A stretch of DNA of 45,745 nt from a bacterium (lineage in GTDB: Bacteria > Patescibacteriota > Andersenbacteria > UBA10190). The translations under genes and the position numbers were made by a program. Positions 11,341 through 40,023 of this stretch are shown here, in pieces. The DNA lies in NCBI GenBank assembly GCA_043811915.1, contig JBDRMS010000004.1, positions 1 to 45,745 on the forward strand. The letters are read 5' to 3'. The notes beneath the pieces were generated by a model, which had not been told where the DNA came from, searched no databases, and saw only the letters and a list, made by a program, of their open reading frames with translations. How positions within the stretch are numbered: position 1 is the first letter of the stretch; every line of letters starts with the position of its first letter.

Positions 11341-12447
11341 ATGCAGCAGTTAGTACAAGAGGACATCGTAACTATTGCCCGAGGAATTAACCGGGAGGCA
11401 AGCAAGCTGGATGGAAAAACAATATTGATAAGCGGAGGGGCTGGTTTTTTGGGGAAATACTTTTTGGGGGTTTTCGATTACTTAAACAAGTATGTGCTGG
11501 ATGAGCCGTGCCGGGTTATATCAGTCGACAACTTTATCACCGGCGACCCGGCCTACGCTGAAGCTTCGGCGGGCAAGCCGATGTTTGACCCACGATATAT
11601 TATCAATGTCTGGGGGGACGTGACGTACCCACTGCCGGTGCGAGAGGATATTGACTACATTATTCACGCGGCAGGACTGGCGTCGCCCGTTTACTATATG
11701 AAGTATCCGCTGGAGACTATTGAGAGCGCGGTGACGGGGGCTAAAAACCTGTTGGAGTTGGCTAGAAAAAATAACATTGAAGGGTTTTTGTTTTTTAGTT
11801 CCAGTGAAATTTATGGTGATCCTGATCCGCGGTCGGTGCCGACGCCGGAGACTTACCACGGCAATGTTTCCAGCGTGGGACCGCGGGCATGTTATGACGA
11901 ATCTAAAAGGCTGACGGAAACGGTGTGTACCATATACCAGCAAAAGTACGGCACACCGGTTAAAATAGTACGTCCATTTAATGTGTTCGGGCCGGGGATG
12001 AAGCATGATGACCGGCGAGTGGTCCCGATGTTCACCTACCAATTGTTGGGTGGCCAGACATTGCCGGTGCACGGGGATGGTCACCAGACAAGAACGTTCT
12101 GTTACATCACAGATGCGATGATTGGCTTTCTGAAGGTGCTGTTGGTCGGGAGAGCGGGCGAAGCCTATAACATAGGAAATGACGATAATGAGATATCGAT
12201 GCGTGATTTGGCACAGATTTTTGTTGATACGGTGGGAAAGGGAGCGAATTATAAGCTTATTCCATATCCGGACAATTACCCGGCAGGGGAGCCACAGAGA
12301 CGGTGTCCTGATCTGACGAAAGCACGGGATGAGTTAGGGTTTGTTCCTCAAGTTAACTTTAAGGATGGTTTGGATAGGTTTATTGTTTGGTGTCGGACAC
12401 AGGAAGCTTATGTTGGTACCGGTGTAGTTGCAGCAAAAGAGAGATGA
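11341..12447 (+). CDS. NAD-dependent epimerase/dehydratase, UDP-glucuronate decarboxylase-like
   Basis: GGAGFLG, ASPVYY, SSSEIYGDP, GPRACYDESKR, GDGHQTRTFCY, PQRRCPD. Confidence 0.85.
   Translation: MQQLVQEDIVTIARGINREASKLDGKTILISGGAGFLGKYFLGVFDYLNKYVLDEPCRVISVDNFITGDPAYAEASAGKPMFDPRYIINVWGDVTYPLPVREDIDYIIHAAGLASPVYYMKYPLETIESAVTGAKNLLELARKNNIEGFLFFSSSEIYGDPDPRSVPTPETYHGNVSSVGPRACYDESKRLTETVCTIYQQKYGTPVKIVRPFNVFGPGMKHDDRRVVPMFTYQLLGGQTLPVHGDGHQTRTFCYITDAMIGFLKVLLVGRAGEAYNIGNDDNEISMRDLAQIFVDTVGKGANYKLIPYPDNYPAGEPQRRCPDLTKARDELGFVPQVNFKDGLDRFIVWCRTQEAYVGTGVVAAKER
11548..11579 (+). repeat. Palindromic repeat copy 1 (in frame in the epimerase gene)
   Basis: CCGGCCTACGCTGAAGCTTCGGCGGGCAAGCC, translated PAYAEASAGKP. 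Confidence 0.85.
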
Positions 12448-13316
12448 TTAGGTTTGGCCTCATCGGCGTTGGCCGGTGGGGAACAAATATATTGAACACG
12501 CTGAAGGAAATAAAGGGGGTAGAAGTTGTCGTTGATTCGGGTGATGGTGTAGACGGTGTTATCGTGGCAACGCCGGGATCTACGCATGCTGAAGTGGCAA
12601 TGCCGTACGTGGAGGCCGGAGTGCCGACTTTTATTGAGAAGCCGATGACAACGAGCTTGAAAGATGCCAAGCGGATCAAGCGGGCAGCGAAGAGTATTGT
12701 CATGGTCGGACATTTGCATTTGTATAATCCATCTTTTTTAAAGGTCAAAGAGCTGGCTGGTAAGATTGGCAAAATTTGCATGATCAGTTTTGAGGGCATG
12801 AATGACGGGCCGGTGCGGAATGACATGTCGGCGCTGTGGGATTGGGGGCCGCACGGGGTAAGCATGATGGTTGATTTGCTGGGCAAGGCACCTCGAGAAG
12901 CGCAGGCCTGGGGGCACACTTGGCTGAAACCGGGAACAAAAGTTTACGACGCGGCGGAGGTCAAGCTGATTTTTCCAGGCAATGTTGAGGGGATGTTATC
13001 CGTGAACTGGCTGGCGCCGGAAAAACGAGTCAAGTTGACCATGATCGGGTCGAAAGGATCCGTTATTTGGGATGACGCTAGTAACAAGAAAGTGGCTTTA
13101 CATAGGGGAGACAAACTGACTCATCCGCGCTATGGAAAACAGCGGCCTTTGAAGCTGGAGCTAGAGGCTTTTATTGAGGCTATCAAGATGAAAAAACAGC
13201 CTTTGGCGGATGTAAATAATGGATTGGCAGTGGTCAAAATTCTGTCCGCCGCCGAAAAATCAATTACCCTGGACGGGAAGCGTGTTACTATGGACAAATC
13301 GGGGGGAGGAGAGTAG
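12444..13316 (+). CDS. Gfo/Idh/MocA-family oxidoreductase
   Basis: GLIGVGRWG, ATPGSTH, FIEKPM, MVGH, WDWGPH; ATG 12444 overlaps the upstream TGA. Confidence 0.88.
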   Translation: MIRFGLIGVGRWGTNILNTLKEIKGVEVVVDSGDGVDGVIVATPGSTHAEVAMPYVEAGVPTFIEKPMTTSLKDAKRIKRAAKSIVMVGHLHLYNPSFLKVKELAGKIGKICMISFEGMNDGPVRNDMSALWDWGPHGVSMMVDLLGKAPREAQAWGHTWLKPGTKVYDAAEVKLIFPGNVEGMLSVNWLAPEKRVKLTMIGSKGSVIWDDASNKKVALHRGDKLTHPRYGKQRPLKLELEAFIEAIKMKKQPLADVNNGLAVVKILSAAEKSITLDGKRVTMDKSGGGE

Positions 13317-13328
13317 TATTTATTCCTT

Positions 13329-15275
13329 ATGAAGACACGCATGCGAGAAAAGAATACAGTCAAAATTGTTGATGTGCTCAAAGATCTTGGTTTATCTGAA
13401 GCGAAATTGCATCATATTCTACGGGAAGTGAACGTACGTCTGGGAGAGGGACAAAAAAATCTGGATCGGCAGGAAATAGCCCGAGTGCGCCAGTATTTGA
13501 ACGAGAAGCGACGGCGTGAAGAACTGAAGCGGCAGGTTATTGCGATCCCCTCTATTATTAAGGTTCAGGACCTGGCTGGAGTGCTGGAGTTGCCGGTGGG
13601 AGAGGTGCTATCACAACTATTGAAAAGTGGCGTTATGGCAACCCTGAATGATGATCTGGATTACGATACAGCGGCGATTGTATCGGCTGATTTGGGCTAT
13701 ATCACGGAAGAAAGAGTGGAAGATTTGGAAAAAGATGTGCTGACTGGTGAAAAACTGGATGAGATATTAAAAAAGGAAGATGCCAAGAAGCAGAAAGACC
13801 GACCACCGATAGTAACAATAATGGGACATGTGGACCACGGCAAAACGACGCTACTCGACTCTATCCGCTCGACTAATGTGGCTTCAGGAGAAGCGGGCGG
13901 CATTACCCAGGCCATTAGCAGTTACCAGGTTAAACACAAGAATCGTTTGATTACTTTTATTGATACTCCGGGACATGAGACATTTGAATTTATGCGTAAG
14001 CGAGGGGCATCACTGGCTGACGTGGCTATACTAGTTGTGGCAGCGGACGATGGGGTGAAGCCGCAAACAAAGGAGGCGGCCCGCTATGCCCGTGAGGCTG
14101 ATGTACCGATAGTGGTGGCGCTGAATAAGATAGACAAGGAAGGAGTTAATACTGACAAAGTAAAAAAGGAACTGGCAGAGATTGATTTAAACCCGGAAGA
14201 GTGGGGGGGGAAGACGGTAGTAGTACCAATTTCAGCACTGAAGAAGCAGGGTATTGATGAGCTATTAGAGATGGTCTTGCTGACGGCTGATATAAACCCG
14301 CCTAAGGCTATAGAGGATAGAGCAGCACTAGGGAGCGTGGTGGAGAGCAGACTGGATAAAAATATGGGGCCACTCGCCGCAGTATTGATTCACACTGGCA
14401 CACTCAAGACAGGAGATGACATAGTAATCGGACGGGCGGCCGGGAGAGTGCGCCGAATGTTAGACTTTCAGGGCAAACCAGTGCAACAGGCTCTGCCCTC
14501 TACGCCTGTAACAATTATTGGTTTAAACGAAGTGCCGGCGGCAGGGGATGTTCTACAGGTAGTCGAGGCCAAAGAAGAGGCTCAAACGAAAGCGGGTAAA
14601 AGCCGGGCGCCCGTAAAAAAGGCGGGAAGCGGAGAAGAAGATGAGCGGCAGGTGCTGGCCCTGGTTATAAAGGCTGACTCCAAAGGTTCTTTGGAAGCCT
14701 TGGAACAAACAATTACGGCCATGGTGCCGCCGGAGGTGCGTTTGTCTATTATTCGTTCAGACGCCGGCACGGTGTCGGATTCAGATGTACTAACGGCGGC
14801 GGCGGCAGAAGCTATAATCTACACTTTCAATACTAACGTGGGAGGGATGTCGCGTAAACTGGCAGAAAAAGAACAGGTGTCGATAAAGTCTTTTGATGTT
14901 ATCTATAGTTTGTCAGAGGACGTGCGGAGTGAGATTGAGAAGCGCTTGCCGGTGAAAATTGTACACCATGATTTGGGTAAGCTTAAAGTGTTGAAAGTTT
15001 TCTTCTCGACGCCAAAACGGAAGATTATAGGGGGGGAGTTGTCCGAGGGTACGGCTGAAACGGGAGCTAAAATTATCACCTGGAGGAAAGATGGCCGTGA
15101 CAGAATTGAAATTGGCCGGGGTGAGATTGTGGAAATGCAGCGGGAGAGACAGAAAATTACTCATGCACAACAAGGGGACCAGATTGGTATAACTTTTGAA
15201 GGAAAAGGCAAAATCAAGGAAGGTGACGTGCTGGAAATATATCGAGAGGATAAGGTGTCAAAGAAACTTGAGTAA
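13329..15275 (+). CDS. infB: Translation initiation factor IF-2
   Basis: [35 protein letters not shown]. Confidence 0.97.
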
Positions 15276-15281
15276 ATAAGT

Positions 15282-15614
15282 ATGTCGCGTCGTATTGATC
15301 GGGTGAACAAGCATATTCAGCGTACTTTTGGCGAGATTTTGCAGACGGAGGCTGATTTGCCCAAGGAGGTTTTAGTAACCGTGTCAGGGGTTGAGACAAC
15401 TCATAATTTACGATCAGCAACAGTGTGGCTGTCGGTGTTGCCGGGCGAAGCCGCAGAAATAACTTTGCAGGGTTTAAAAAAGCAGATGTATGAGCTACAA
15501 GGGTCGCTAAATCGGCAATTAAAACTTAAAATACTGCCGCGTATTTATCTTAAAATTGACAAAGGAGCAGCATATGCAGAAAAAATTAACCGAGAACTCA
15601 ACAACCTTGCTTAA
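15282..15614 (+). CDS. rbfA: Ribosome-binding factor A
   Basis: RRIDRVN...VTVSGVETTHNLRSATVWLS...LKILPRIYLKID; follows infB. Confidence 0.9.
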   Translation: MSRRIDRVNKHIQRTFGEILQTEADLPKEVLVTVSGVETTHNLRSATVWLSVLPGEAAEITLQGLKKQMYELQGSLNRQLKLKILPRIYLKIDKGAAYAEKINRELNNLA

Positions 15615-16578
15615 GGGATACGAGGAGACGGTAGAGACAGTCCATGACGTGCTCAAGCGCGCTAACAGCGTGTTGATTGGTACGCATGAACACCCGGATG
15701 GTGATGCGGTGGGTTCAACTTTAGCGCTAATGACGGCTTTGCGTATACAAGGCAAACGAGTGACAATTTTTATTCCTGACCCGGCGCCAGAACTGTTCGC
15801 CTTTTTGCCTGGATTTGAAGAGTTAACGTGTAAAAAGCCGGATGTTTCTTTGTATGACGCGGTGGTACTGCTTGATTACACAAAACTTTACCGCACGCAT
15901 TTAGCTGAAGAGGTAAACAAGCATAAATGTACCGTGTGCATTGATCATCACCACAGCAATGTCGGGGAGGCACAGATTAACTTGGTAGTGCCGGAGGCGG
16001 CGGCGACGACTCATATACTGGTGTCCTTCTTTGAAGAAACAGGAACCCCAATTACTAATGACATGGCTACGTGTCTCCTGACAGGTATTTTCACTGATAC
16101 GGGTTCTTTTATACATGACTCAACGACGCCGGAGATATTAAAGGTAGCCTCAATGTTGATGAAGAAAGGAGCACGATTGTCTCATATTGCCCATGAGACG
16201 TACCAGAAGAAAGCTTTGCCGGGGCTGCGCATTTGGGGTAAAGCGCTGTCGCGGGTAGTGGTAAATGAAGATACCGGAGCGGCAACTTCTGTTATTACTC
16301 TGCAAGACCTGGAGGAGTGCGGGGCCACCTTGGATGATTTGTCTGGGGTGGTTAATATGCTTAACACTTTGTCGAACACTAAATTTGCTCTTTTGTTAAC
16401 GGAGTATCGTCCGGGTGTGGTAAAGGGGAGTTTGCGTTCCGAGCCACACAAAGATGTTGATGTTAGTTTAATAGCACAGAAGCTGGGTGGAGGAGGGCAC
16501 AAACTGGCGGCTGGTTTCGAGGTGTCGGGACACTTGCTGCAACGAGGAGATAAGTGGAGAATAGAGAGAGTTAAATGA
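15607..16578 (+). CDS. nrnA: DHH/DHHA1 phosphoesterase (NrnA-like nanoRNase/pAp phosphatase)
   Basis: HEHPDGDAVGS, IDHH, GIFTDTGSF, GGGGHKLAAG; start uncertain (TTG 15607 chosen). Confidence 0.85.
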   Translation: MLKGYEETVETVHDVLKRANSVLIGTHEHPDGDAVGSTLALMTALRIQGKRVTIFIPDPAPELFAFLPGFEELTCKKPDVSLYDAVVLLDYTKLYRTHLAEEVNKHKCTVCIDHHHSNVGEAQINLVVPEAAATTHILVSFFEETGTPITNDMATCLLTGIFTDTGSFIHDSTTPEILKVASMLMKKGARLSHIAHETYQKKALPGLRIWGKALSRVVVNEDTGAATSVITLQDLEECGATLDDLSGVVNMLNTLSNTKFALLLTEYRPGVVKGSLRSEPHKDVDVSLIAQKLGGGGHKLAAGFEVSGHLLQRGDKWRIERVK

Positions 16579-16608
16579 CCAATAACTAATTTCCAATGAC
16601 CAATAAAT
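16574..16608 (+). repeat. Degenerate heptamer array spanning nrnA stop and ymdB start
   Basis: AATGACC AATAACT AATTTCC AATGACC AATAAAT. Confidence 0.7.
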
Positions 16609-17402
16609 TGCGTTTTTTGATTTTGGGGGATGTGGTTGGCCGGCCGGGACGGGAGGTAGTGAGCCGGGCATTGCCGGAATTGAGAGAAGCGTATAAGCCG
16701 GATGGTTTAATTGTGAATGTGGAAAATATTTCTCATGGGGTGGGAATTACAGCTAGTACTTTTTCTGAAGTGGAGGGCTGGCAGGCAGACGTGTACACCT
16801 TGGGAGACCATGCCTGGGATAGCAAGCAAGGTTTTGACGTATTGGAGGATGGCAGCAAATCAATTATCAGACCAGCTAATTACCCAAGAGGGGTGCCGGG
16901 ACGAGGGTATCATATTTTTTCAAGCGGGGCTTACCAAATAGCGGTGATTAATTTGCAGGGGCAAGTATTTTTCCGGAACCAACCCCTTAATCCTTTTCAT
17001 GTGTTGGATGAATTACTGGTCAAGCCGGAGATAGCAGCGGCGGATGTTAAGTTGGTTGATTTTCATGCGGAGGCGACAAGCGAGAAAAGGGGGCTAGGTT
17101 GGCACGCTGATGGGCGAGTGACGGCTGTTTGGGGTACGCATACTCACGTACCGACGGCAGATGCACAGGTATTGCCGGAGGGAACTGGATATATCACGGA
17201 TATTGGCATGTGTGGCAACTATAATTCTATTATTGGAGTTGACAAGAAAGGTCCTTTGAAAAGCTTTCTAACTCAAATGAAAATGTCCATAACTCTTGAC
17301 GACGTGGGTCCGTTGGAGGTAGGCGGGGTATTGCTGGAGGTTGATCCGGCTACAGGAAAAACAATAAGTATTGCGCAGATTAGAAAAATACTGAATAATT
17401 AG
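16596..17402 (+). CDS. ymdB: YmdB-family metallophosphoesterase
   Basis: GDVVGRPG, NVEN, RPANYP, VDFHAEATSEK, GTHTHVPTAD. Confidence 0.92.
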   Translation: MTNKLRFLILGDVVGRPGREVVSRALPELREAYKPDGLIVNVENISHGVGITASTFSEVEGWQADVYTLGDHAWDSKQGFDVLEDGSKSIIRPANYPRGVPGRGYHIFSSGAYQIAVINLQGQVFFRNQPLNPFHVLDELLVKPEIAAADVKLVDFHAEATSEKRGLGWHADGRVTAVWGTHTHVPTADAQVLPEGTGYITDIGMCGNYNSIIGVDKKGPLKSFLTQMKMSITLDDVGPLEVGGVLLEVDPATGKTISIAQIRKILNN

Positions 17403-17441
17403 CTTTATTAAGCATAAAGAAAAGAGCGGAGGTGATGGTGT

Positions 17442-17717
17442 GTGATTAATAAGGATGCTCTTATTGACCAGGTAACAAACGTTACCCGGATGCCGCGTAA
17501 GGACGTGAGTGAGATTATTAATGTTTTTCTTGAGTTGTTGATCGAAAAATTGTCTTTGGACGAGAAGGTTAACCTGACTGGTTTCGGCGCTTTTGAGGTG
17601 AAAGATAGAAAGGGCCGAAGAGGAGTTGATCCTAGAACACTCAAGGAGATAGTGATTCCAACAGTGCGAGTGGCTAAGTTTCGCCCAGGCAGAACGTTAA
17701 AAGAGAGTGTTAAGTAG
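17442..17717 (+). CDS. hup: DNA-binding protein HU
   Basis: NKDALI, VNLTGFGAFEV, GVDPRT, FRPGRTLKE. Confidence 0.93.
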   Translation: MINKDALIDQVTNVTRMPRKDVSEIINVFLELLIEKLSLDEKVNLTGFGAFEVKDRKGRRGVDPRTLKEIVIPTVRVAKFRPGRTLKESVK

Positions 17718-17733
17718 TGCCTCACTGCTAGTA

Positions 17734-17804
17734 CGGGGTGTAGTGTAGTGGTAGCACGAGTCCTTTGGGAGGATTTAGCTCGAGTTCGAATCTCGGCACC
17801 CCGA
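17734..17804 (+). tRNA. tRNA-Pro(UGG)
   Basis: Acceptor CGGGGTG/CACCCCG, arm AGTCC-TTTGGGA-GGATT, GTTCGAA. Confidence 0.95.
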
Positions 17805-17836
17805 CCCGCCTACGCCAAGGCTTCGGCGGGCAAGCC
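17805..17836 (+). repeat. Palindromic repeat copy 2 (tRNA-Pro/tRNA-Gly spacer)
   Basis: CCCGCCTACGCCAAGGCTTCGGCGGGCAAGCC. Confidence 0.85.
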
Positions 17837-17840
17837 TTAT

Positions 17841-17911
17841 GCGAGTGTCGTATAGTGGTAATACCGCAGCTTTCCAAGCTGCTGCCAGGGGTTCGATTCC
17901 CCTCACTCGCT
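17841..17911 (+). tRNA. tRNA-Gly(UCC)
   Basis: Acceptor GCGAGTG/CACTCGC, arm GCAGC-TTTCCAA-GCTGC, U73. Confidence 0.95.
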
Positions 17912-17935
17912 CTAACCGTGTGATATAATCCTTCC

Positions 17936-18352
17936 ATGAAATATGGGCGGTATGGTTGGTCGTATTTTTTTCTGCGGTTCGGATTGGGCCTTACTTTTTT
18001 GTGGATCGGAGTAGATATACTGCGACACGGAGATGTTTGGATTGGTTATGCGCTGACTAATGCGCCGCTGGGACTGTCACGTGATTCAGTTTTGGAACTA
18101 GCCGGATTTTTGGATGTGGTACTGGGACTTGGGTTGTTGTTGCGAGTAGTGCCAAAACTAATGAGCGGCCTGGCAGTAATACACCTGTTGATTGTTATTG
18201 CGATGCACGGTGTTGATGCCACGCTGGTCCGCGATGTGGGCTTGTTGGGGGCGGCGCTGGCGCTACTGCTTTGGCCAACGCATTATCATACAAAGAAAGG
18301 CTGGCGACAAAGAATTTTTCGAAGGGGCGGCTACTCGAGCCGTGAAGACTAG
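17936..18352 (+). CDS. DoxX-like membrane protein
   Basis: FLRFGLGLTFLWIG...W, VRDVGLLGAALAL; 4 TM segments. Confidence 0.7.
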   Translation: MKYGRYGWSYFFLRFGLGLTFLWIGVDILRHGDVWIGYALTNAPLGLSRDSVLELAGFLDVVLGLGLLLRVVPKLMSGLAVIHLLIVIAMHGVDATLVRDVGLLGAALALLLWPTHYHTKKGWRQRIFRRGGYSSRED

Positions 18353-19494
18353 TACATCGACAGGGGGTTGATGGGGCGGCCGTGTTTGCGAACTTCAAAG
18401 TGCAAGTGAGGGCCGGTGGAGCGTCCGGTTGAACCCACTTTGGCAATGGCATCTCCTTTGGCTACCACCTGCCCCTGACTAACATAGAACTTATCCAGGT
18501 GAGCATAATAGGTTACCAGCCCGCTACCATGATTGACGATGACGAGATTGCCATATCCACCCAGGCGACCGGTGAATTCAACTGTGCCGGCAGCGGCGGC
18601 GTAGACGGGTGGGCGGTCGCGGTTATCTATGTCGATACCGGTGTGCCCCCAACGGAAATATTGGGAGATGTGGCGAGTGGTGGTCGGCCAAATAAAGCCG
18701 GCACTCTTAATTAAAGAGGGTGGTGGTGGGGATTCGGATGCAATGCTAGTATCGGAAACTATGGGCGGAGCGGTACTAGGAGCAATATATCCATCAGGAA
18801 TAATTATTTTTTGTCCGATGGCGAGTTTGGCGTCGTCATCCAGTTTGTTATAGGTGAGGATGTCTTCCACATCGGCATCATATTTTTGAGCCAAGGCCAG
18901 GACGGTATCGCCGGAACTGACAGTATGAAAAACTCCCGTGGTGGGAAGAATGGTAAGGTGGTCGCCTATTTTGATTATGTCTTTGTCGGAGAGGCCGTTG
19001 GCCCAAAGCACGGTATTAATACTGATGTTGAACCGGGCGGCGATACTAGCGATGGTGTCGCCGTCCTGGACAGTGTAAATGCGAGGTCCGGCTGGCTGAC
19101 TGGGGGGGATAGCATCACTACCAGGCTCGGGAGCAATGGGACTTAAGGGGGCAATCACAGCATTACCACCGAGAGTGCTGGCAAAACTGACTTCGGGGTC
19201 TTCAAAAGTTATTAGTTCAATACCCAGATCAGCGTTCAAGGCAGACAGCCGCGCTCCCCCAACCCCGGGAGTGTCAGTGCCAGCGTAGGCGTTGGGGTCC
19301 AGGGGTCCTTCGGCTACTTCTTCACCGGCGATGATGTTGTATAACAAAGAGTCGTGGTCTGCAACCACGGCTTCCTGACTTTGCCAAGCTATTCCTACCA
19401 TCAAAGACAGGAAAGTAGCATGAACAATATGCTTTTTGATAAGCGGAACGCTATCGTCTCCCTGTTCGAGGGTGGATTGCGCCTTGTTAGACAC
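18349..19494 (-). CDS. LysM x2 + M23 peptidase (peptidoglycan endopeptidase)
   Basis: YTVQDGDTIASIA and HTVSSGDTVLALA LysM repeats; HTGID, YAHL, STGPHLHFEV. Confidence 0.92.
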   Translation of the reverse strand: MSNKAQSTLEQGDDSVPLIKKHIVHATFLSLMVGIAWQSQEAVVADHDSLLYNIIAGEEVAEGPLDPNAYAGTDTPGVGGARLSALNADLGIELITFEDPEVSFASTLGGNAVIAPLSPIAPEPGSDAIPPSQPAGPRIYTVQDGDTIASIAARFNISINTVLWANGLSDKDIIKIGDHLTILPTTGVFHTVSSGDTVLALAQKYDADVEDILTYNKLDDDAKLAIGQKIIIPDGYIAPSTAPPIVSDTSIASESPPPPSLIKSAGFIWPTTTRHISQYFRWGHTGIDIDNRDRPPVYAAAAGTVEFTGRLGGYGNLVIVNHGSGLVTYYAHLDKFYVSQGQVVAKGDAIAKVGSTGRSTGPHLHFEVRKHGRPINPLSMY

Positions 19495-19683
19495 CGTTTA
19501 TAAAATCCTTTCATTCAAGAGCAACTTTGTGTTTGATGTTTGTATCAAGATGGTATTGTAAAGGGGCAGGGGGTCAAGTCAACATTGACATTGCTACTAA
19601 TTTGTTTCCTTGTTTTGAGATAGGCTGGTAGAAGGGGCCATAGCATCCTGTAGACTAATTCTGTCAATTATTTGTAACAAAGT

Positions 19684-20529
19684 ATGGTGTGGAAAAACCT
19701 GACTGACATATCAACCATTAAGGCGTTGTTGGCAAAAAAAGGTGTCTGCCCCCAGCGCTCTTCCGGTCAACATTTCCTGGTGTGCGAAGAGGTGGTTGAA
19801 GCGACACTTTTGGCTTTGAGTAATGAGGTGACAGAAATTACGGAGCTGGGAGCGGGCCTGGGAACACTAACACAGGCGCTGCTGGGGGCCGGTTATAAGG
19901 TGAAGGCCGTTGAGCGAGATGCCGCCTTGAATGATTTAATCTGGTTCGGCATACCAAAAAACCTTAAGGGTAATCTTGATCTGATAAGAGGAGATTTGCG
20001 CGAGGTAAACTGGAGCTGGCAGAAGGCCTACCAGCTGGTAGGCAATATTCCATATAATTTGTCAGGTTTGATTATACGACGACTGACGTTGTTAAATCCT
20101 GCACCGGATCGGGTAGTGTTGCTGGTGCAGCGGGAGGTAGGCAAGCGTTTAACGGCGAGCGAAGGCAGCTTGTCTTTGATTGGAGTGGCAGTGCAATTGT
20201 GGGGCAGTGCAGAAAGCCTACTCAACGTGCCAGCGAGTTGTTTTTGGCCAGTGCCGCAAGTGGACTCACAACTGGTGTTATTGATTCCCAGGACTGGAGC
20301 CGGCGCGACAAGCGCAGAAAGAAGAGAGAAGGTATTGACGTTGGCCAGGCAGTTTTTTCAGACCAAACGGAAACAAATGGGAGGAAGAATGAGACAGCTG
20401 CTTGGTATAAAGACTGAAAGAGCAGAGAAAATGTTGCGGGAAGCGAATATCGAACCAATAATGCGTCCACAGGAAGTATCTATTAAAGCGTGGCTAGCTT
20501 TATCGCGCGTGGTATACTCGAAAGAGTGA
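19684..20529 (+). CDS. rsmA: 16S rRNA m6,2A dimethyltransferase
   Basis: GQHFL, ELGAGLGTLT, VGNIPYN, LVQREV, FWPVPQVDS. Confidence 0.92.
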   Translation: MVWKNLTDISTIKALLAKKGVCPQRSSGQHFLVCEEVVEATLLALSNEVTEITELGAGLGTLTQALLGAGYKVKAVERDAALNDLIWFGIPKNLKGNLDLIRGDLREVNWSWQKAYQLVGNIPYNLSGLIIRRLTLLNPAPDRVVLLVQREVGKRLTASEGSLSLIGVAVQLWGSAESLLNVPASCFWPVPQVDSQLVLLIPRTGAGATSAERREKVLTLARQFFQTKRKQMGGRMRQLLGIKTERAEKMLREANIEPIMRPQEVSIKAWLALSRVVYSKE

Positions 20530-21497: not shown

Positions 21498-21549
21498 GGC
21501 ATCCGACGTAAAAAAGTTGTAGTTTAGTGTGTTATTATGGCATTAGACA

Positions 21550-23040: not shown

Positions 23041-23050
23041 ATATAAGATT

Positions 23051-27874: not shown

Positions 27875-28366
27875 ATGGTGGTGAGAAACGGCTTGCTATT
27901 GCGGATGGGGGTTATAGTTGTTGCGGCTCTTTTGTTGTTATTTGGTTTGTACTGGAGCGGGCGGAGCTTGTTGCCTCCCAAGCCTGGCGAGGAAGAACCC
28001 CCGGAGCCAGTCGTGTGTGATAATATGTATAAAGATATTCGGGAAGTAGTGGATAACAGAGAAACGGCGTGTGGACTGGATGTGAGCGGGCAGGCCCTTT
28101 TGTACTTAACAAAGGCGGTTTCTTTGGCTAAAGGTTTAATGTTGTTGAATGCCAGTAATAGTAATTTAATAGAGCTACCTGACTGGATCGGGACGATGAC
28201 GGAGCTTAGACAAATTGATGTGAGTGATAATAAATTAACATCTTTGCCGGAAGAGTTGGGCTTTTTAGTTAATTTAAAAGTGCTGGATTTGCGGGGGAAT
28301 CCTTTGCCGGTGGAGGAAGTGGAAAAGATAAGGAAATTGCTGCCAAAGGCGGACGTGAAGTTTTAG
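27875..28366 (+). CDS. Membrane-anchored leucine-rich repeat protein (shorter paralog)
   Basis: Same anchor, LRR units and GNPLP..EE...LLPKADVKF end as the upstream gene. Confidence 0.85.
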   Translation: MVVRNGLLLRMGVIVVAALLLLFGLYWSGRSLLPPKPGEEEPPEPVVCDNMYKDIREVVDNRETACGLDVSGQALLYLTKAVSLAKGLMLLNASNSNLIELPDWIGTMTELRQIDVSDNKLTSLPEELGFLVNLKVLDLRGNPLPVEEVEKIRKLLPKADVKF

Positions 28367-28413
28367 CGGGAATACCATATAATGGGAGTACTATTTATAG
28401 GTAGGCTTCCTTC

Positions 28414-30820: not shown

Positions 30821-30837
30821 ATTTGTCTGTGAAGATT

Positions 30838-32897: not shown

Positions 32898-33383
32898 ATG
32901 ATAGATTGGCAGCTATTTATGGCAAAGCCGCTGGGGTCGGTGCTTACACGCCCGCCGCTGGAGCAAGACCAGCTAATCGAAAAATCTTTTACTTTGCCAC
33001 GGCCGGTTAAGAGTTTATTCAATGCGGAAAGAACGGGAGCTTACATTATAGGTTTGGCCAAGGCGTATAGGTTATCAACTGACCAGGCTCACAGTATTGC
33101 CCTTATGATTCTTACGGTTGGCCTAGGCGAAAAGACGCTGGCGCAGCTGGCCAGTTTGTTGTCGACGGAGCTGAAGCTGTCGAATGATAAGGCGCAGAAG
33201 ATGGCGCGGGAGATTGAGGAGGATTTGTTCGGGCCGGTGATGAAGGAGTTGGAGGAATACTGGCAACGGCAGAAGAGCGGCCCGCCTGCGCCAGAGGCTT
33301 CGGCGGGTGAAACGGGGGCGCGCAATGTGCTTAACCTGAAAGAGCAGAAAAAGCCGCCGGCACCGCCGCCGATGCCGAGATGA
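32898..33383 (+). CDS. Hypothetical helical protein preceding PrgI
   Basis: LSTELKLSNDKAQKMAREIEEDLFGPV; stop overlaps the PrgI start (ATGA). Confidence 0.7.
   Translation: MIDWQLFMAKPLGSVLTRPPLEQDQLIEKSFTLPRPVKSLFNAERTGAYIIGLAKAYRLSTDQAHSIALMILTVGLGEKTLAQLASLLSTELKLSNDKAQKMAREIEEDLFGPVMKELEEYWQRQKSGPPAPEASAGETGARNVLNLKEQKKPPAPPPMPR
33281..33307 (+). repeat. Palindromic repeat copy 3 (in frame)
   Basis: CCCGCCTGCGCCAGAGGCTTCGGCGGG, translated (G)PPAPEASAG. Confidence 0.8.
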
Positions 33384-33826
33384 GATACCAGGTTCCACAG
33401 TTCGTCGACATTCAGGACCGGATTATTGGTCCGCTGACGCTGAAGCAGTTTCTTTTTTATATGGCGGCAGGAATGTTGCTGGTGCCGGTTTATTTTTTGT
33501 CCGACCTGGGCCTATTCTTGAGCGTAGCTATTCCTACAGTGGGCGTGGCGGCGGCTTTTGCCCACATACACTGGCGGGGACAAACTTTTGCGTCGTTATT
33601 GTCGCACGGGTTGCGATATTTTACGGGGGAGCGCATGTATCTGTGGCGGCGAGAAGCCGGAGCGGGCAGTGTACACATTGCCGGCAGTGAGTATGAGGAG
33701 TTTACCGAGGCGGTGCCTATTACCACTTCGGCTCTGGACGCGGTGGTGCAAACGCTGAACACGCAAGGGAATATTATTGCCCAGGACGCAGCAGATCCGC
33801 TGCTGGAGGAAGAAGGAGCTAAGTAG
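33380..33826 (+). CDS. prgI: PrgI-family (VirB3-like) protein
   Basis: MRYQVPQFVDIQDRIIGPLTLKQF signature plus two TM segments. Confidence 0.85.
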   Translation: MRYQVPQFVDIQDRIIGPLTLKQFLFYMAAGMLLVPVYFLSDLGLFLSVAIPTVGVAAAFAHIHWRGQTFASLLSHGLRYFTGERMYLWRREAGAGSVHIAGSEYEEFTEAVPITTSALDAVVQTLNTQGNIIAQDAADPLLEEEGAK

Positions 33827-33838
33827 TACACTAGCTTC

Positions 33839-34570
33839 ATGCGCAGTGCGGATAAGAAGGGTAAGCCGACGCAACAGCTAGTGCCGCTCAAGGAAGTGCG
33901 TGATGGCATTGCTGTTCTGTCGGATGGAACCTTGCGGTCTATATTGATCGTATCGTCGCTTAACTTCGCCCTTAAGTCAGAGGATGAGCAGAATGCTATT
34001 GTGCTTGCTTTTCAGGATTTTTTGAATTCACTCGACTTTCCGGTGCAGATTACGGTTGTGTCGCGCAAACTGGATATCACTCCTTATTTAGAGGAATTGC
34101 GAGGCCGCAAAGAGGGGCAGAGTAATGAGTTGCTGCGCCTGCAAATGGATGAATATATAAATTTTGTGGCTGAATTGGTAAAAGGCAGCGATGTTATGGC
34201 CAAAACGTTTCTGGTAACGGTGCCGTTTTCGGTGCAGCAAAGTCGGCAAGATAATTTTTTGCAACGTTTTATCAAGAGCTTGAAAAATATCGGCAAAAAG
34301 TCGCCACAGGTATCAGAAGCGGACTTCGTGCACTACCGGTCGCAATTGTTGCAGCGGGTAGAGCAGGTGGCGGTGGGTCTGCGCGGGGTGGGACTTCGGC
34401 TGGTACCGCTACAAACCCAGGAGATGTTGGAGCTATTTTATGACACTTTCAACCCGGCCACATCGCGTAATCAGCCACTCGGTAATGCGGCTCAATTGAA
34501 AGTGAGGGAGACAGAATCACATGAGTTGGTAGCAGAGGAGGCTAATAAGAAGCCGTGGGCGGGAAAATAA
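33839..34570 (+). CDS. TraC/VirB4 N-terminal-like protein
   Basis: NFALKSEDEQNAI...FQDFLNSLDFPVQI..SRKLD, L.L.Y..FNP; sits between PrgI and the ATPase. Confidence 0.75.
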   Translation: MRSADKKGKPTQQLVPLKEVRDGIAVLSDGTLRSILIVSSLNFALKSEDEQNAIVLAFQDFLNSLDFPVQITVVSRKLDITPYLEELRGRKEGQSNELLRLQMDEYINFVAELVKGSDVMAKTFLVTVPFSVQQSRQDNFLQRFIKSLKNIGKKSPQVSEADFVHYRSQLLQRVEQVAVGLRGVGLRLVPLQTQEMLELFYDTFNPATSRNQPLGNAAQLKVRETESHELVAEEANKKPWAGK

Positions 34571-34584
34571 TTAATATACGAGAT

Positions 34585-36426
34585 ATGCCAAATATATTAG
34601 GTTTTGAAATTAGCAAGAAACAAAACGGAGCCAGGAAGAAAAAAGAGTTCACAACCCCGGAAGAGCAGGCCGAAGAGAGACAATTTGAAGAAGGGGTGGC
34701 GAGTCTGAAAGACATTCTGGCGCCAGCAGCTTTTCAGGTCAACCCGGGACATCTGGAAATTGACGGTAAGTTTGCTACGACATTGTTTGTAATGACTTAT
34801 CCACGCTATCTGGAAACTAATTGGCTTTCTCCTATCATTAATTTTGATATTGAGTTTGATATGAGTATGTTTATTTATCCCCAGGAGTCGGCCACGGTGC
34901 TAAAACAAATGAAACGGCAGGTAACCCAGGTGGCGGCCTCTATTTCTATGCGGGCAGAGAAAGGAAAAGTGCGAGACCCGCAACTGGAAACGGCCTATCG
35001 TGATATTGAAGAGCTACGTGATAGATTAGTACAAGGAACGGAACGATTTTTTCAGTACAGTTTGTACCTGACGATTTATGGAGATACCAAAGAGGAATTG
35101 GACGAAGTCGCAGCCCAGGTCGAGGTATTGCTGGAGGGAAGGCTGGTGTATGTTAAGCCAGCACTGTTTCAGGCCAAGGAAGGTTTTTTGTCTACGCTGC
35201 CGTTGGGACATGATAAGCTGGTGCGCTCAACTAATATGAGCTCCTCATCGCTTTCCACTACATTTCCTTTTGTCAGTTCAGACCTGACCAGTAACAACGG
35301 TATTTTGTACGGTGTTAACCTACACAATAACAGCTTGATATTGTTTGATCGTTTTAGTCTGGAGAATGCCAATATGGTTATCTTCGCCAAATCGGGCGCG
35401 GGCAAGTCGTATTTGGCGAAGTTGGAGATTTTGCGGCAGCTGATGTTCGACACGGAAGTTATTGTCATAGACCCGGAGCAGGAGTATCGCTACCTGTCTG
35501 ATTCGGTAGGGGGAGCGTATTTGCGCATTGCCACGGCTTCGGATCACCGGATTAATCCTTTCGACCTGCCGGAATTAAATGAGGACGATGAACCGGAGGC
35601 GGTACTGCGCGAGAATATAACGCGCTTAACCGGCCTTATTTCATTAATGGCAAGCGGTTTTACGCCGGAAGAACAGTCGGTGGCAGACAGAGCATTGTGG
35701 GAAACGTATGCTCTGAAAGATATAACAAGGGGGGCGCGCTGGCAGCGCCCGGAGACTCCGACACTGCAGGATTTCTACACGGTGGTTAACGACATGGAGG
35801 GCGGGGCGAATATTGCGCTCCGGCTGGAGCGTTTTGTGGAAGGAACGTATGCGGGAGTGTTTAACCGACCGACTAATGTTGATCTAAATAAGCAGCTGGT
35901 GGTATTTAATGTGCGGGATATGGAAGAAGAGCTGCGGCCAATCGCCATGTACGTGGTGCTGGGCTTTATTTGGAATAAGGTGAGAAGCTCGCTGAAGCGA
36001 CGGGTGCTGGTGGCTGATGAGGCGTGGGTCCTTATGCAGCACGAGGAGTCAGCCAAGTTTTTGTTTTCTATTGCCAAGCGGGCTCGTAAATACTACTTGG
36101 GCGTAACAACTATTACCCAGGATATTCAGGACTTTTTGGGTTCCCAGTACGGCAAGCCGATTGTGACTAATTCTTCATTGCAACTACTGCTGCGGCAGTC
36201 GCCGGCGGCAATTGACTTGCTGGCCGAAGTTTTTTACTTAACGGATCATGAGAAGTTTCGCCTGCTGGAGAGTGATGTGGGCGAAGGTCTTTTCTTCGCC
36301 GGATTAAAGCACGTGGCCATTAAAGTGGTGGCCAGTTATGCCGAAGACCAGGTGATAACGTCCGATCCGCAGCAGGTGCTGGCGATTGAAGCAGCCAAGC
36401 GAGAGTTGGCGCAAGCGGGAGGGTGA
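34585..36426 (+). CDS. virB4: VirB4/TraC-family T4SS ATPase
   Basis: Walker A AKSGAGKS, IDPEQEY, INPFD, Walker B VADEAW, RARKY, ITQ; start ATG 34585. Confidence 0.92.
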   Translation: MPNILGFEISKKQNGARKKKEFTTPEEQAEERQFEEGVASLKDILAPAAFQVNPGHLEIDGKFATTLFVMTYPRYLETNWLSPIINFDIEFDMSMFIYPQESATVLKQMKRQVTQVAASISMRAEKGKVRDPQLETAYRDIEELRDRLVQGTERFFQYSLYLTIYGDTKEELDEVAAQVEVLLEGRLVYVKPALFQAKEGFLSTLPLGHDKLVRSTNMSSSSLSTTFPFVSSDLTSNNGILYGVNLHNNSLILFDRFSLENANMVIFAKSGAGKSYLAKLEILRQLMFDTEVIVIDPEQEYRYLSDSVGGAYLRIATASDHRINPFDLPELNEDDEPEAVLRENITRLTGLISLMASGFTPEEQSVADRALWETYALKDITRGARWQRPETPTLQDFYTVVNDMEGGANIALRLERFVEGTYAGVFNRPTNVDLNKQLVVFNVRDMEEELRPIAMYVVLGFIWNKVRSSLKRRVLVADEAWVLMQHEESAKFLFSIAKRARKYYLGVTTITQDIQDFLGSQYGKPIVTNSSLQLLLRQSPAAIDLLAEVFYLTDHEKFRLLESDVGEGLFFAGLKHVAIKVVASYAEDQVITSDPQQVLAIEAAKRELAQAGG

Positions 36427-37027: not shown

Positions 37028-37588
37028 ATGAGGAGAGGAAGAATAAATAAATTATTATTGGGGAGCATAATTGTGGCGGTGGCAGGATGGCTGGCGGCGC
37101 CAAGCGTCCTGCTAGCCCAGGAAGGAAAAGCATGCACCCCGGGAGGATATGCTGTTTGCCCCGCCAACTATATTTGCAAGAAAAAAACGCCAAGTGCTGG
37201 TTTTACATGTGAGTGCGCCTGGGGTGATATAGAAGTAGGTTTGCCTGGCAAAAAAATAAATATTGGGGATAGTATTTGTACTCTCGTGACTTCTTCAGGC
37301 GGAGGGCCTGGTTGGTTTGTTCAACAGATTGTTACAGCCATGATAGCGCTGACGGTTATGGCGGCCTTGGTCAGTATTGTGGTTGGCGGATATATCTATA
37401 TGACGGCGGGGGGGAGCGGAGACAGGGTGCGGACAGCAAAAATATGGATAGGGTCGGCGATACTGGGGATTATTCTGGCGCTGCTGGCGTGGTTAATTCT
37501 GGCCTCTATTGCAAGTAATTTGGTGTCATTTTCTACTCCCTCCTCACCCTCCACTTCTCCTTCTTCGCCAACAAGTACGCCATACTAA
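37028..37588 (+). CDS. VirB2/TrbC-like T4SS pilin with Cys-rich N-terminal module
   Basis: Signal ..VLLA|Q, Cys module, IVVGGYIYMTAGGSGDRVRTAK.WIGSAILGIILAL; Ser/Thr/Pro tail. Confidence 0.8.
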   Translation: MRRGRINKLLLGSIIVAVAGWLAAPSVLLAQEGKACTPGGYAVCPANYICKKKTPSAGFTCECAWGDIEVGLPGKKINIGDSICTLVTSSGGGPGWFVQQIVTAMIALTVMAALVSIVVGGYIYMTAGGSGDRVRTAKIWIGSAILGIILALLAWLILASIASNLVSFSTPSSPSTSPSSPTSTPY

Positions 37589-38764
37589 AGCAAGCAATAT
37601 CCAGTGCAAAGCGGCCAGGTCGTTTTTGAAGTAAATAGTGTCGGTGAAGCCGAAGAGTAATAGCGCTAGTAGGGCTAGTGCCAGTGCTGTAGCACTGGAG
37701 TTGAATTTAAAAAATACCAAAATATTCAAACCGACAAAAGACAGCAGCCCTAATAACCCGGTGTTGAGCCAGAAGGAGAGAATCCAGTTATGAGGATCGC
37801 GGAAGACGAATTCAGCCAGCGGAGGGGACCTATCTTCGCCAAGGCTACGGCGGGTAAAAAAACGTTCGTGCAGTTTTTGCTGATAAACGGGCTCAAAAGT
37901 ACCCAGACCGACACCCAATATCGGGTGTTCTTTTATTAAATCCCAGGAGATAGACCATAGTTGCAAGCGGACAGAGATGGAGTTGGGAAATTGGGTTAGG
38001 TAGGTAAGCCGGCCGGTCGAAGATAAGAAGAGGGCAGCAAGAATAAAGAATAAGGCAAGAATGGTGAGGGCTGGTTTTCGCGAAGATGGCTTTGCCCAAA
38101 ACGTTATACCTAACGAGAGAGTTATTGTTATGGCAATAAGGGCAGATACGGACTGGGTGGCGAGAAGGGCGAGAACTATGGGAGCAGCGTAAAACCAGCG
38201 TTTTTGCCAAAGGGCTATTATCAACAACGGGGCGAGAAACAGAGCGAGGGAGTTGGGGACACTATAAACGCTTTTCACCCGGCCTAGGCTGAATATCTGG
38301 AATAGGCCGATGGCAGAGACAGCGATACCAGATGCCATAAGAGCGTTTATAATTTTTAAGTTAAATTTTTCGATTTTCAAAAAACTGCCGCTGTAAATCA
38401 GCCAGCCAAATAATATGGGAATTATTATCCAGCTCTTGAGGATGCCAAGACTGGTGTAGGGATGGGGCGAAATTATGGTGGAGACAATGGCGGCGGTGAT
38501 AAAAAGGAGTACCAGAATCCTGAAGGTAATTGGCAGCCGCCGCCAGGCAGTTGCCCAGCGGGAGCGAGTAGCTGGCCGGATGAAGCAAGCTGTGGCAACG
38601 ACCAGTATAGCCAGCTCGAGAAAATTGGCGGGCAGGCCGAAGACGGAGAAACGAAGAAGATAGGCGGGAAGAAAGGCAGCAGTGAGAATAATGGCGGTGC
38701 GGTGATGATAGTAGGCAAGAAGGGCGAGAAGGGCGAGAGCGGGGAAGAGGAAGAAAGTAATCAT
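37544..38764 (-). CDS. O-antigen ligase / O-oligosaccharyltransferase-family membrane protein
   Basis: Many TMs, RVKSVYSVPNSLA, VRLQLW, PILGVGLGTF, DPHNWILSFW. Confidence 0.82.
   Translation of the reverse strand: MITFFLFPALALLALLAYYHHRTAIILTAAFLPAYLLRFSVFGLPANFLELAILVVATACFIRPATRSRWATAWRRLPITFRILVLLFITAAIVSTIISPHPYTSLGILKSWIIIPILFGWLIYSGSFLKIEKFNLKIINALMASGIAVSAIGLFQIFSLGRVKSVYSVPNSLALFLAPLLIIALWQKRWFYAAPIVLALLATQSVSALIAITITLSLGITFWAKPSSRKPALTILALFFILAALFLSSTGRLTYLTQFPNSISVRLQLWSISWDLIKEHPILGVGLGTFEPVYQQKLHERFFTRRSLGEDRSPPLAEFVFRDPHNWILSFWLNTGLLGLLSFVGLNILVFFKFNSSATALALALLALLLFGFTDTIYFKNDLAALHWILLALVWRTCWRRRRSGG
37829..37857 (+). repeat. Palindromic repeat copy 4 (degenerate, in frame on the antisense strand)
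   Basis: CCTATCTTCGCCAAGGCTACGGCGGGTAA, translated TRRSLGEDR in the ligase. Confidence 0.7.
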
Positions 38765-40023
38765 AAATCCAAAAACTTGGATTTGTTTCCTGCCGTGAGC
38801 GCTAAGGCAGTAATGACAATGAGAGTAATGAGAAGGTGAGAATATAAAAAACTGTTAACAAACTGGCTGTGGATAAGCAAGGTGGTGAAGCTGAACAGGA
38901 CAAGCAGCGACCGGGTGCGCAACATTATAAAGGCCCAGGGGAAAAAGAAGAGAATAACGCCAATGAGCCCCGTAGTTATCCATAAAGTAAGCAGACTGTT
39001 GTCGGCACCGGCACGGGAATGAATATTGAAGTCTGAAATTAATCCGGCTTTGGCGGCAGCAAATTGGTAGGCGTTGTAACCAACACCAAGCAGGGCGTGT
39101 TGCTCGGCCAGGGGCCAGACTTCTTTGAGGGCATCCAAGCGAAGCCGGGCGGTGGCATCCAAAATGACAATACCGACCAGGCGATCATGTAAAAGAAATG
39201 CCGCGCTGCCCAGCAGGAGTAAGATGAGCAGGAGGCTGCTGATAGCGGCTACGAGTCGGGCACGAGTGACGCGGTGCAGCGCCCTGGCGATGATGAGAGG
39301 GGAAAAAATAAGTGTTGATAGGGTGAGGGCGATGAGGGCGCTGCGGGATTGAGTTAAAAGGAGGGCAATTATTATCAGTGCCACTAGCACTAACAACAGC
39401 GACGGGTTCCACCTTCGCTGAAGCTTCGGCGGGCAAGCCTGTCGCGTCGTTCTGATAATAATAAACGGCAGCATGATAGCCAGGAAGGCACCGAAGAAAT
39501 TGGGGTCGAGCCAGGTGGAAGTGAGGCGGTTTTGGTGGGGATCCCACCCCAATTTTGTTAAAGTTGAGAAGTCAGGGACTAACCATAGCTGGAGGAAGCC
39601 GAGAAGGATAAGAATGGTTGTAGTGATAATCAGTCCGCGCCGGGCGGTGGCGGCTATTCTTGCATCCTGGAAAAGAATAAGCAACGCGGGCAGGAGGAGC
39701 AGGTGGGCGGCGAGACGAGACCAGTAAGCGAAGGCGACGGCGCTGTTTGGAAGGCCTAGTTCAGGAACTCGAATGATAAGAGTAAAGAGAGACCAGAGGA
39801 TGAAAGGAGTGATAGTAACTAGTAACTGGTAACTAGTAACTGGTAATTTTTTGGTATTGAAAATAAGGCTAATGAGAGCAGATATTAGTATAATCACGAC
39901 GGCTAGATCGCTGATTAGTAAACCGCCACCCTGGCCGGGGAGGGGAAAGCGCAAGACCTGGCCTATAACGAGAGAGGCGAGAAGAACCGATACAAGGAGC
40001 GAGCCGATTTTACTAAAAGACAT
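38761..40023 (-). CDS. O-antigen ligase / O-oligosaccharyltransferase-family membrane protein
   Basis: RLTSTWLDPNFFG, LTQSRSA, LLGVGYNAY, ADNSLLTLW; stop overlaps the start of the next ligase. Confidence 0.85.
   Translation of the reverse strand: MSFSKIGSLLVSVLLASLVIGQVLRFPLPGQGGGLLISDLAVVIILISALISLIFNTKKLPVTSYQLLVTITPFILWSLFTLIIRVPELGLPNSAVAFAYWSRLAAHLLLLPALLILFQDARIAATARRGLIITTTILILLGFLQLWLVPDFSTLTKLGWDPHQNRLTSTWLDPNFFGAFLAIMLPFIIIRTTRQACPPKLQRRWNPSLLLVLVALIIIALLLTQSRSALIALTLSTLIFSPLIIARALHRVTRARLVAAISSLLLILLLLGSAAFLLHDRLVGIVILDATARLRLDALKEVWPLAEQHALLGVGYNAYQFAAAKAGLISDFNIHSRAGADNSLLTLWITTGLIGVILFFFPWAFIMLRTRSLLVLFSFTTLLIHSQFVNSFLYSHLLITLIVITALALTAGNKSKFLDL
39408..39439 (+). repeat. Palindromic repeat copy 5 (in frame on the antisense strand)
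   Basis: TCCACCTTCGCTGAAGCTTCGGCGGGCAAGCC, translated ACPPKLQRRW. Confidence 0.85.
39813..39847 (+). repeat. Heptamer tandem repeat inside the ligase gene
   Basis: TAGTAAC TAGTAAC TGGTAAC TAGTAAC TGGTAAT, translated LPVTSYQLLVT. Confidence 0.85.

Follow-up and report, generated by a model that had tools for sequence, protein, structure and literature searches.

A 31- to 33-nucleotide palindromic repeat lying in frame within protein genes and at tRNA gene ends of an Andersenbacteria genome

A GC-rich palindromic repeat was analyzed in a 45,745-nucleotide (nt) stretch of DNA (contig JBDRMS010000004.1 of assembly GCA_043811915.1, from a bacterium of the Andersenbacteria). This stretch, termed the window, is contig C4 of the study genome, G000 (870 kb in 18 contigs, ~49% G+C). 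The repeat formed a family with a common anatomy and co-varying stems; its copies lay within protein genes and at the ends of tRNA genes, were patchily present at orthologous sites, exhibited a strand bias and recurred across phyla. On balance, we lean toward reading it as a non-autonomous, structure-dependent mini-element, resembling repetitive extragenic palindromic (REP) sequences and Rickettsia palindromic elements (RPEs), that is moved by some trans-acting factor.

Copies, anatomy and orientation of the repeat

Direct reading of the sequence found the palindrome at all five window sites listed below. A search with the strict pattern CCCGCC-N10-20-GGCGGG gave two matches in the window, compared with 0.02 expected, and two or more matches were obtained in 0 of 100 shuffled sequences. 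The E-values listed were obtained with a copy profile trained on 10 copies from the genome and refer to the whole 870 kb.

11548..11579 (+), near-consensus copy, E 8.8e-9; inside the NAD-dependent epimerase gene 11341-12447 (+); peptide PAYAEASAGKP
17805..17836 (+), near-consensus non-coding copy, E 7e-9; between the genes for tRNA-Pro(tgg), 17734-17806, and tRNA-Gly(tcc), 17841-17912
33281..33307 (+), degenerate copy, E 0.63; in the gene for a 161-amino-acid (aa) protein, 32898-33383 (+); peptide PPAPEASAG
37829..37857 (+), degenerate copy with a decayed left arm, E 3.3e-4; in the Wzy_C ligase-family gene 37544-38764 (-); minus-strand peptide TRRSLGEDR
39408..39439 (+), near-consensus copy, E 6.8e-9; in a second Wzy_C ligase-family gene, 38761-40023 (-); minus-strand peptide ACPPKLQRRW

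The preliminary description of this DNA had claimed five palindrome copies, one intergenic and four translated without a break in the open reading frame (ORF), in different frames and on different strands. This account was confirmed, with the qualification that the copies at 37829 and 33281 are degenerate members of the family, as judged by their weak profile E-values. In the 33281 copy, the arms were perfect, the centre was 1 nt longer and the CAAGC tail was missing. All four coding copies in the window could be translated without a stop; the 39408 copy had a TGAA centre, and a TAAA centre would create a TAG stop in that frame. The left arm of the 17805 copy began within the 3′ end of the tRNA-Pro gene (2-nt overlap), and its right boundary was marked by loose contig ends at 17836/17837. 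Both Wzy_C hosts are O-antigen-ligase-family membrane proteins, and the 161-aa host adjoins PrgI and TraC/VirB4-like type IV secretion genes.

The repeat is 31 to 33 nt long, with the consensus CCCGCC-TWC-GCY-RA-RGC-TWC-GGCGGG-CAAGC(C). A 6-bp GC stem leads into a 3×3 internal loop (TWC/TWC), followed by a 3-bp inner stem that is closed by a 2-nt loop; a 3′ tail, CAAGC(C), completes the element. A core-plus-tail pattern with free arms, searched in 35 genomes of the family, gave 28 matches in 10 genomes and 0 matches for the reversed control. Among 27 free-arm copies (21 distinct), stem cells were paired in 94.2% of cases, compared with 83.8 ± 1.4% in shuffles; double-sided changes were present in five of the nine stem pairs, and the covariation score was reached by 0 of 500 shuffles. 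When the partners were shifted by one column, pairing fell to 41 to 53%. Complementary arm variants were CCAGCC/GGCTGG, CAGGCC/GGCCTG, CCGGCC/GGCCGG, CCCGAC/GTCGGG and CCCACC/GGTGGA, the last with one other mismatch. Part of this covariation lies between sub-families, as some arm variants share longer flanks within one genome. In the cross-phylum set, 77 of 81 copies had a Watson-Crick centre pair (Y12/R15; C-G or T-A). No variation was present in the TWC/TWC loop or in the CAAGC tail, but both were fixed by the search patterns. Folding of single copies was no better than that of shuffled sequence (z, −0.6 to +0.6), and hence the structural support comes from the covariation instead. In its length and its covarying stem, the repeat agreed with the short (20- to 40-nt), imperfect, hairpin-capable palindromes that define REP sequences. 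A search of Rfam with 14 loci at E ≤ 1 returned tRNAs and two sub-threshold chance matches but no family for the repeat. Full-text literature searches with the sequence and peptides, and on palindromic elements or REPs in candidate-phyla-radiation bacteria, returned nothing on it.

Across the genome, 16 copies were detected at E ≤ 0.02 (the 10 profile seeds included) and 22 at E ≤ 1. Fifteen of the 22 copies were within ORFs of 171 to 693 aa, so that the extragenic location characteristic of REPs was not observed. The frames used by these 15 copies included all six. A TAAA centre gives a stop in two of the frames, and both copies in those frames carried CAAG or TGAA instead. The predicted hosts, named outside the window from translations and Pfam-style motifs, were TsaD, the arginyl- and alanyl-tRNA synthetases (ArgRS and AlaRS), release factor RF1 (a weak copy), a prepilin peptidase, two PMT/GT39-like proteins, three GT1-type glycosyltransferases and the products of the four window genes.

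Six of the seven non-coding copies were on, or no more than 26 nt from, the end of a tRNA gene. Four of them overlapped the tRNA by 1 to 5 nt, at the 3′ end of tRNA-Pro, the 3′ CCA of tRNA-Lys, the 5′ end of tRNA-Met and the 5′ end of tRNA-Leu, and the left arms at tRNA ends re-used the tRNA's own CCA or 5′ bases. Among 80 listed cross-phylum loci, four had a tRNA within 150 nt, all four labelled as candidate-phyla-radiation bacteria. An origin of the repeat from a tRNA was rejected: the best local alignment to 45 tRNA and transfer-messenger RNA (tmRNA) genes scored 10, compared with a mean shuffle maximum of 10.6. A tmRNA with a long tag peptide (ANQKTHKSSSANLFSRVKAAFAPSFAPAIA) was predicted at C6:15071-15464 of G000. 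Short tandem heptamers flanked two G000 copies. Many copies sit in tandem repeats of 6 to 8 nt, such as AATTTTC at C11:2031-2058 and C6:159104 of G000; other repeat units surround copies in other phyla (loci L096, L104, L112, L140, L142, L151 and L274).

The plus orientation of the element was on the G-rich strand in 18 of the 22 G000 copies (14/15 coding, 4/7 non-coding), and this orientation with respect to GC skew was kept in all four coding copies whose gene is on the other strand. The same bias was present for 17 of 21 copies in relatives, a count that includes one inverted pair at a single locus. A tie between orientation and replication strand, as is found for IS200/IS605-like elements, was thus observed both in G000 and in its relatives. 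For IS608-type elements, such a bias is expected of DNA acting as a single strand at the replication fork. The GC skew of G000 is unusually strong (0.2 to 0.3 in 10-kb windows), with a constant sign along most contigs.

Host sites, relatives and other phyla

Orthologues of the host genes (relatives are numbered from G001) were compared at the sites of the repeat, and most lacked it. None of 12 epimerase orthologues (66 to 85% identity) carried the repeat, which lies in a variable loop with a net gain of 5 aa in G000; a metagenome scan for epimerase relatives found 33 loci, of which 6 covered the site with useful identity, 0 of 6 had the repeat and none was close enough to define an empty site. 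For ArgRS, the repeat was in 0 of 22 aligned orthologues (net +4 aa in G000). It was present in 0 of 16 orthologues of the ligase 38761-40023, for which the net length was not determinable in a variable loop, and in 0 of 18 orthologues of the ligase 37544-38764, for which loop length was equal. For TsaD, a diverged copy occupies the corresponding position in G002; the length in G000 equals that of nearly all of 24 orthologues, and G001 is 4 aa shorter. For AlaRS (net +3 aa in G000), element-like sequence was found at the site in G001 and G008 but not in G002. One GT1 copy is common to G000 and G001 and absent from four others (net +9 aa). At the PMT-like site (net +2 aa in G000), G002 had no copy and the loop of G009 contained three tandem element-like units; at the GT39-like site, 0 of 3 orthologues covering it had the repeat and the net change was about 0. 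The 161-aa protein has a hypervariable linker and is no longer in G000 than in its orthologues, with element-like DNA at the same place in G001. At the tRNA-Pro 3′ end, the repeat was present in G000 and G012 and absent after the 99%-identical tRNA-Pro of G002.

A glycosyltransferase gene on C5 gave a length-neutral site with the repeat in antisense orientation in G000 and in sense orientation in G003, in the same loop. The sense copy of G003 is in a 116-nt block present twice, inverted, 100% identical and 432 nt apart, both in frame in one glycosyltransferase ORF (L349, G003:C34:11180-12101). Opposite orientations at one loop in two genera support independent hits.

The preliminary description had proposed that the repeat writes new peptide loops of about 10 aa into proteins, and had taken as contrary evidence any repeat-less orthologues with the same peptides and lengths. 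Such peptides were not found in repeat-less orthologues, and the absence of the repeat from most orthologues agrees with the preliminary description. An insertion of ~10 aa was rarely the outcome; the repeat mostly replaces loop sequence, with a net change of 0 to +9 aa.

The same protein loops carry other palindromic or tandem inserts in relatives, including GC-rich blocks of ~135 nt, AT-rich inserts of the FENCKIENC type and three tandem QPSHKAMAGKA units. In the orthologues of the ligase 38761-40023 in G001 and G002, GC-rich palindromic inserts (~135 nt) are in the very loop that has the repeat in G000 (L062 and L059, respectively); other genomes hold other inserts in the loop of the ligase 37544-38764 (L068, L078 and L079), and a further case is the PMT-like protein of G009 (L386). 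Such loops seem to act as landing sites for small repeats in general.

Next to the 161-aa protein gene, a type IV secretion gene set occupies window positions 33380-36426: a PrgI-family gene comes first, and two ORFs with matches of the TraC/VirB4-like kind come after it. Of these ORFs, the first scores under the Pfam cut-off, and the second has a TraG-type P-loop domain. Upstream of these secretion genes are genes for large surface proteins that contain Calx-beta, DUF11 and TSP3 repeats.

The age of some copies could be judged from other assemblies. Over the epimerase copy, contigs of a second sample matched the window exactly. In another study, run X4 gave a 479-nt contig that aligned to 11221-11670 with 59 differences and no gap; among the differences listed, 19 were in 11436-11544 and none in 11545-11588, and the next were at 11589 and 11592. 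A relative diverged by 13 to 17% thus seems, from this alignment, to carry the same epimerase copy unchanged. The copy adjacent to tRNA-Pro was matched in G001 with 98% identity over 45 nt. Decay was apparent in the coding copies at 37829 and 33281 and in the TsaD copy of G002, and several copies are common to species or genera.

Beyond the study genome, a 17-mer from the repeat (≤1 mismatch) was present in 18 of 41 relatives, with 76 matches compared with 1 for the reversed control. By group, these were 14 of 24 genomes of the same family, 2 of 6 from a second family in that order and 1 of 10 from ten other families of the class and phylum. Copy number ranged from 0 to 14 among relatives of equal lifestyle. 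A 23-nt degenerate core was detected in at least 118 stretches from many phyla (one genome per species), a number for which chance would account, by a rough estimate, for well under one. Of the 80 loci listed, 26 were labelled as candidate-phyla-radiation bacteria; other listed carriers were Acidobacteriota, Bacteroidota, Verrucomicrobiota/Kiritimatiellia, Planctomycetota, Proteobacteria, Nitrospirota, Armatimonadota, Chloroflexota, Methylomirabilota and others, and two of the listed core matches fall in an isolate genome. Copy boundaries were identical across phyla and the flanks were unrelated. The family of minimal repeats noted at first in this one genome is, therefore, not private to it, nor is the sequence lineage-specific and vertically inherited in the manner of REPs.

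Five large genomes had 14 to 55 copies each, compared with 0 to 2 for the control, the carrier with 55 copies being a cultured Bacteroidota isolate. One clear inverted doublet was found in the genome of a Bacteroidota isolate, and tandem arrays interleaved with an octamer were found in one Bacteroidota genome; no inverted doublet was present among the copies listed for G000, where no systematic search for doublets was made. About half of the loci were open in some frame over all 323 nt (12/24 from candidate phyla, 28/49 from others). Collections of plasmids, phages and Escherichia coli gave no match, and in IMG/VR seven viral contigs held the core.

Mobility and its alternatives

Under the mini-element reading, the repeat would be copied elsewhere in the form of a hairpin of single-stranded DNA, on the strand exposed during replication, and a trans-acting factor, whose existence we infer, would read the fixed loop and tail of the hairpin. 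In a gene-dense genome, copies would survive only where little harm was done. The surviving sites would be surface or linker loops of proteins, in which the copies would be in frame and translated, and the very ends of tRNA genes. We infer mobility in single-stranded form in particular.

G000 contains seven intact paralogous Y1 genes of ~217 aa, which exceed the Pfam cut-off and have HxH and RYIHxNP motifs; their best NCBIfam match was the REP-associated tyrosine transposase (RAYT), at 53 to 64 bits compared with a cut-off of 80.

Y1 genes of G000: C8:64869-65522, C2:28210-28863, C1:71637-72290, C6:97037-97696, C5:79460-80116, C6:125003-125656 and C6:39901-40572

An AT-rich hairpin of its own lies immediately upstream of each gene and, for six of them, immediately downstream as well; each hairpin is present in 3 to 6 copies genome-wide. 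The Y1 genes and their hairpins look like seven separate mini RAYT/REP-like systems, none of which involves the GC repeat. The copy of the GC repeat nearest to a Y1 gene is 768 nt away, within another ORF. A truncated reverse transcriptase gene (YADD motif) is located at a contig end beside a large serine recombinase (C1:110582-112244, L418) and is unlinked to any copy.

Several observations weigh against the mini-element reading. The repeat is tied to no enzyme: it flanked 0 of the 7 Y1 genes in G000, and 0 of 11 Y1 genes in five relatives shared a contig with a copy. G008 has 11 copies and no Y1 match (in a genome only 76% complete), 0 of 3 RAYT loci examined in other phyla carried the repeat, these being flanked by other hairpins, and no TnpB-like domain was found in G000. 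The link to a flanked RAYT/IS200-type Y1 transposase suggested in the preliminary description was, therefore, not borne out, and neither was its claim of an active family. In contigs of four runs over 11001-31000, no joint skipping a copy was detected, a negative of little weight as three of the runs (X3, X4 and X5) cover this stretch only in parts; several copies are also shared by species or genera. Old yet unchanged copies fit selection on the sequence as well as mobility. The epimerase, TsaD and tRNA-Pro sites showed no duplication of target sequence, and none of them yielded a clean empty site in a near-identical strain. Net changes at the host sites were 0, 0, 0, 0, +2, +3, +4, +5 and +9 aa, as opposed to the 10 to 11 codons of the element, an outcome that plain insertion does not predict. 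The strand bias was not present in the cross-phylum set (41/80), which is uninformative with flanks of only 150 nt. Translation of the coding copies is presumed from their open frames. These near length-neutral outcomes, the exact abutment on tRNA ends and a single consensus across phyla are unexplained by the mini-element account and leave room for a functional element or for replacement.

A functional element would be a host-useful DNA or RNA hairpin, acting in cis, bound by a widely conserved factor (e.g., in replication, RNA processing or pausing) and kept by purifying selection. This would agree with the same core and tail in many phyla, with stems that co-vary around fixed unpaired bases and with placement exactly at tRNA gene ends, as well as with an epimerase copy unchanged at synonymous sites in the diverged relative and with the close match of the tRNA-Pro-adjacent copy in G001. 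We nevertheless consider it rather unlikely, as even genomes of one genus, and orthologous sites, differ in whether they carry the repeat, relatives of equal lifestyle differ in copy number from none to 14, coding copies have decayed, and copies lie in either orientation within genes and also form arrays and inverted doublets, without a match to any Rfam family. Replacement, in which templated repair or recombination would overwrite short patches of loop DNA that already resembled the ends of the element, would account for the four length-neutral coding copies and for gains of only 2 to 9 aa in five others. GACCC and GGCAAG, present at the empty epimerase site of G001, also occur at the two ends of the element; in TsaD, the copy takes the place of a segment of constant length, with similar residues kept (RRAS for KKAD), and the left arms at tRNA ends re-use tRNA bases. 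Microhomologies of 5 to 6 nt can, however, be due to chance, the GT1 site is a plain gain of 9 aa, loop length varies anyway, and the truncated reverse transcriptase is linked to no copy; we know of no template or enzyme for such a process, and regard it as distinctly improbable. A further possibility, to which we assign a low probability, is a pan-bacterial module, a 31-nt hairpin whose fixed loop and tail would be read by a very widely distributed factor. Such a module might spread on the replication-exposed strand by overwriting rather than inserting, and thereby rewrite tRNA gene borders and the loops of proteins while scarcely altering their length, keeping one consensus across more than 10 phyla.

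A reading in which the repeat belongs to the ordinary REP families and one of the seven RAYT-like Y1 transposases mobilizes it in trans, as the preliminary description would have it, is quite improbable. The intact genes with their HxH and RYIHxNP motifs and their RAYT match, together with a hairpin that has a fixed flanking pentanucleotide and a replication-strand bias, would fit an HUH enzyme. Each Y1 gene already has a cognate mini-family, however, and repeat-rich relatives have unlinked Y1 genes or none detected; the distance of 768 nt to the nearest copy and the other hairpins flanking RAYTs in three other phyla point the same way. Chance similarity, or a compositional or assembly artefact, might be suspected from the two weak window copies (E 3.3e-4 and 0.63) and from the breaking of relatives' assemblies at copies. 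This explanation has a negligible probability and was refuted by the reversed-pattern controls (1 versus 76 matches and 0 versus 28), by profile E-values reaching 1e-9, by the presence of copies within contigs as long as 3.5 Mb and within an isolate genome, and by the identical sequence in contigs of the second sample.

Significance and comparison with known systems

REP-type small repeats are held to be extragenic, bound to one lineage and tied to a resident transposase. To our knowledge, the repeat described here is the smallest REP-type element reported in coding DNA. It keeps the frame in essential genes of this 870-kb genome, namely those for TsaD, ArgRS, AlaRS, and cell-surface glycosyltransferases and ligases. 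If mobile, it would supply ultra-small bacteria with variation in the loops of surface-related proteins and would mark the exchange of DNA across phyla; if functional, it would imply a conserved nucleic-acid-binding activity not yet described. As a carrier with 55 copies, the Bacteroidota isolate, is in culture, the question is testable.

Elements of the IS200/IS605 type (e.g., IS608) recognize hairpins, make no target duplication and have an orientation tied to the replication strand. The repeat resembles them in its hairpin and in an orientation that follows the replication strand, but it has no linked transposase gene, no fixed target tetranucleotide was found, and the target sequence seems to be lost on entry. 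In comparison with miniature inverted-repeat transposable elements, the arms of the repeat are inverted repeats, and no target duplication was found at the epimerase, TsaD or tRNA-Pro sites, for which a near-identical clean empty site was lacking. Palindromic DNA is also tolerated within reading frames of organelles. The GC clusters of yeast mitochondria are of this kind. Coding palindromes have been described in mitochondria of Nematomorpha (as outlined in PMC6649704). Unlike the repeat, these organellar palindromes are longer and lineage-specific.

Like REPs and REPINs, the repeat is an imperfect, GC-rich palindrome of short length flanked by a fixed motif, and its genome contains Y1 genes; an inverted doublet and arrays of it were found in other genomes. 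It differs in position, as REPs are extragenic by name and 15 of the 22 copies of the repeat were in ORFs. Enterobacterial REPs carry a GTAG motif, which is absent from the repeat, the fixed flank of the latter being CAAGC. REPINs are inherited vertically and flank a single-copy RAYT, according to the accounts in PMC3116915, PMC3337134 and 10.1101/2022.05.22.493013, whereas no Y1 gene was flanked by the repeat and its core was shared across phyla. The BRE of Betaproteobacteria and pneumococcal repeats are small dispersed repeats found inside about nine or more protein genes, as summarized in PMC3184786; they are longer than the repeat, each is restricted to one lineage, and the part of that source dealing with them mentions no association with tRNA ends.

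RPEs are in-frame palindromic repeats of about 105 to 146 nt in protein genes, and also in non-coding DNA, of a reduced genome (Ogata et al. 2000, as cited in PMC3184786). The repeat is likewise in frame inside protein genes of a reduced genome and present in non-coding DNA. RPEs add a sizeable peptide and are known from one genus, whereas the repeat, at 31 to 33 nt, is well short of the RPE length, contributes 0 to 9 residues net, lies at tRNA ends and is found in many phyla. In anatomy, with a stem that co-varies, unpaired bases that are fixed and a constant flank, the repeat corresponds to a REP; in its behavior in genes, it corresponds to RPEs and similar repeats. As it departs from REPs in extragenic position, flanked transposase and lineage specificity, the repeat is classed as working like REP and RPE elements rather than as a member of either family.

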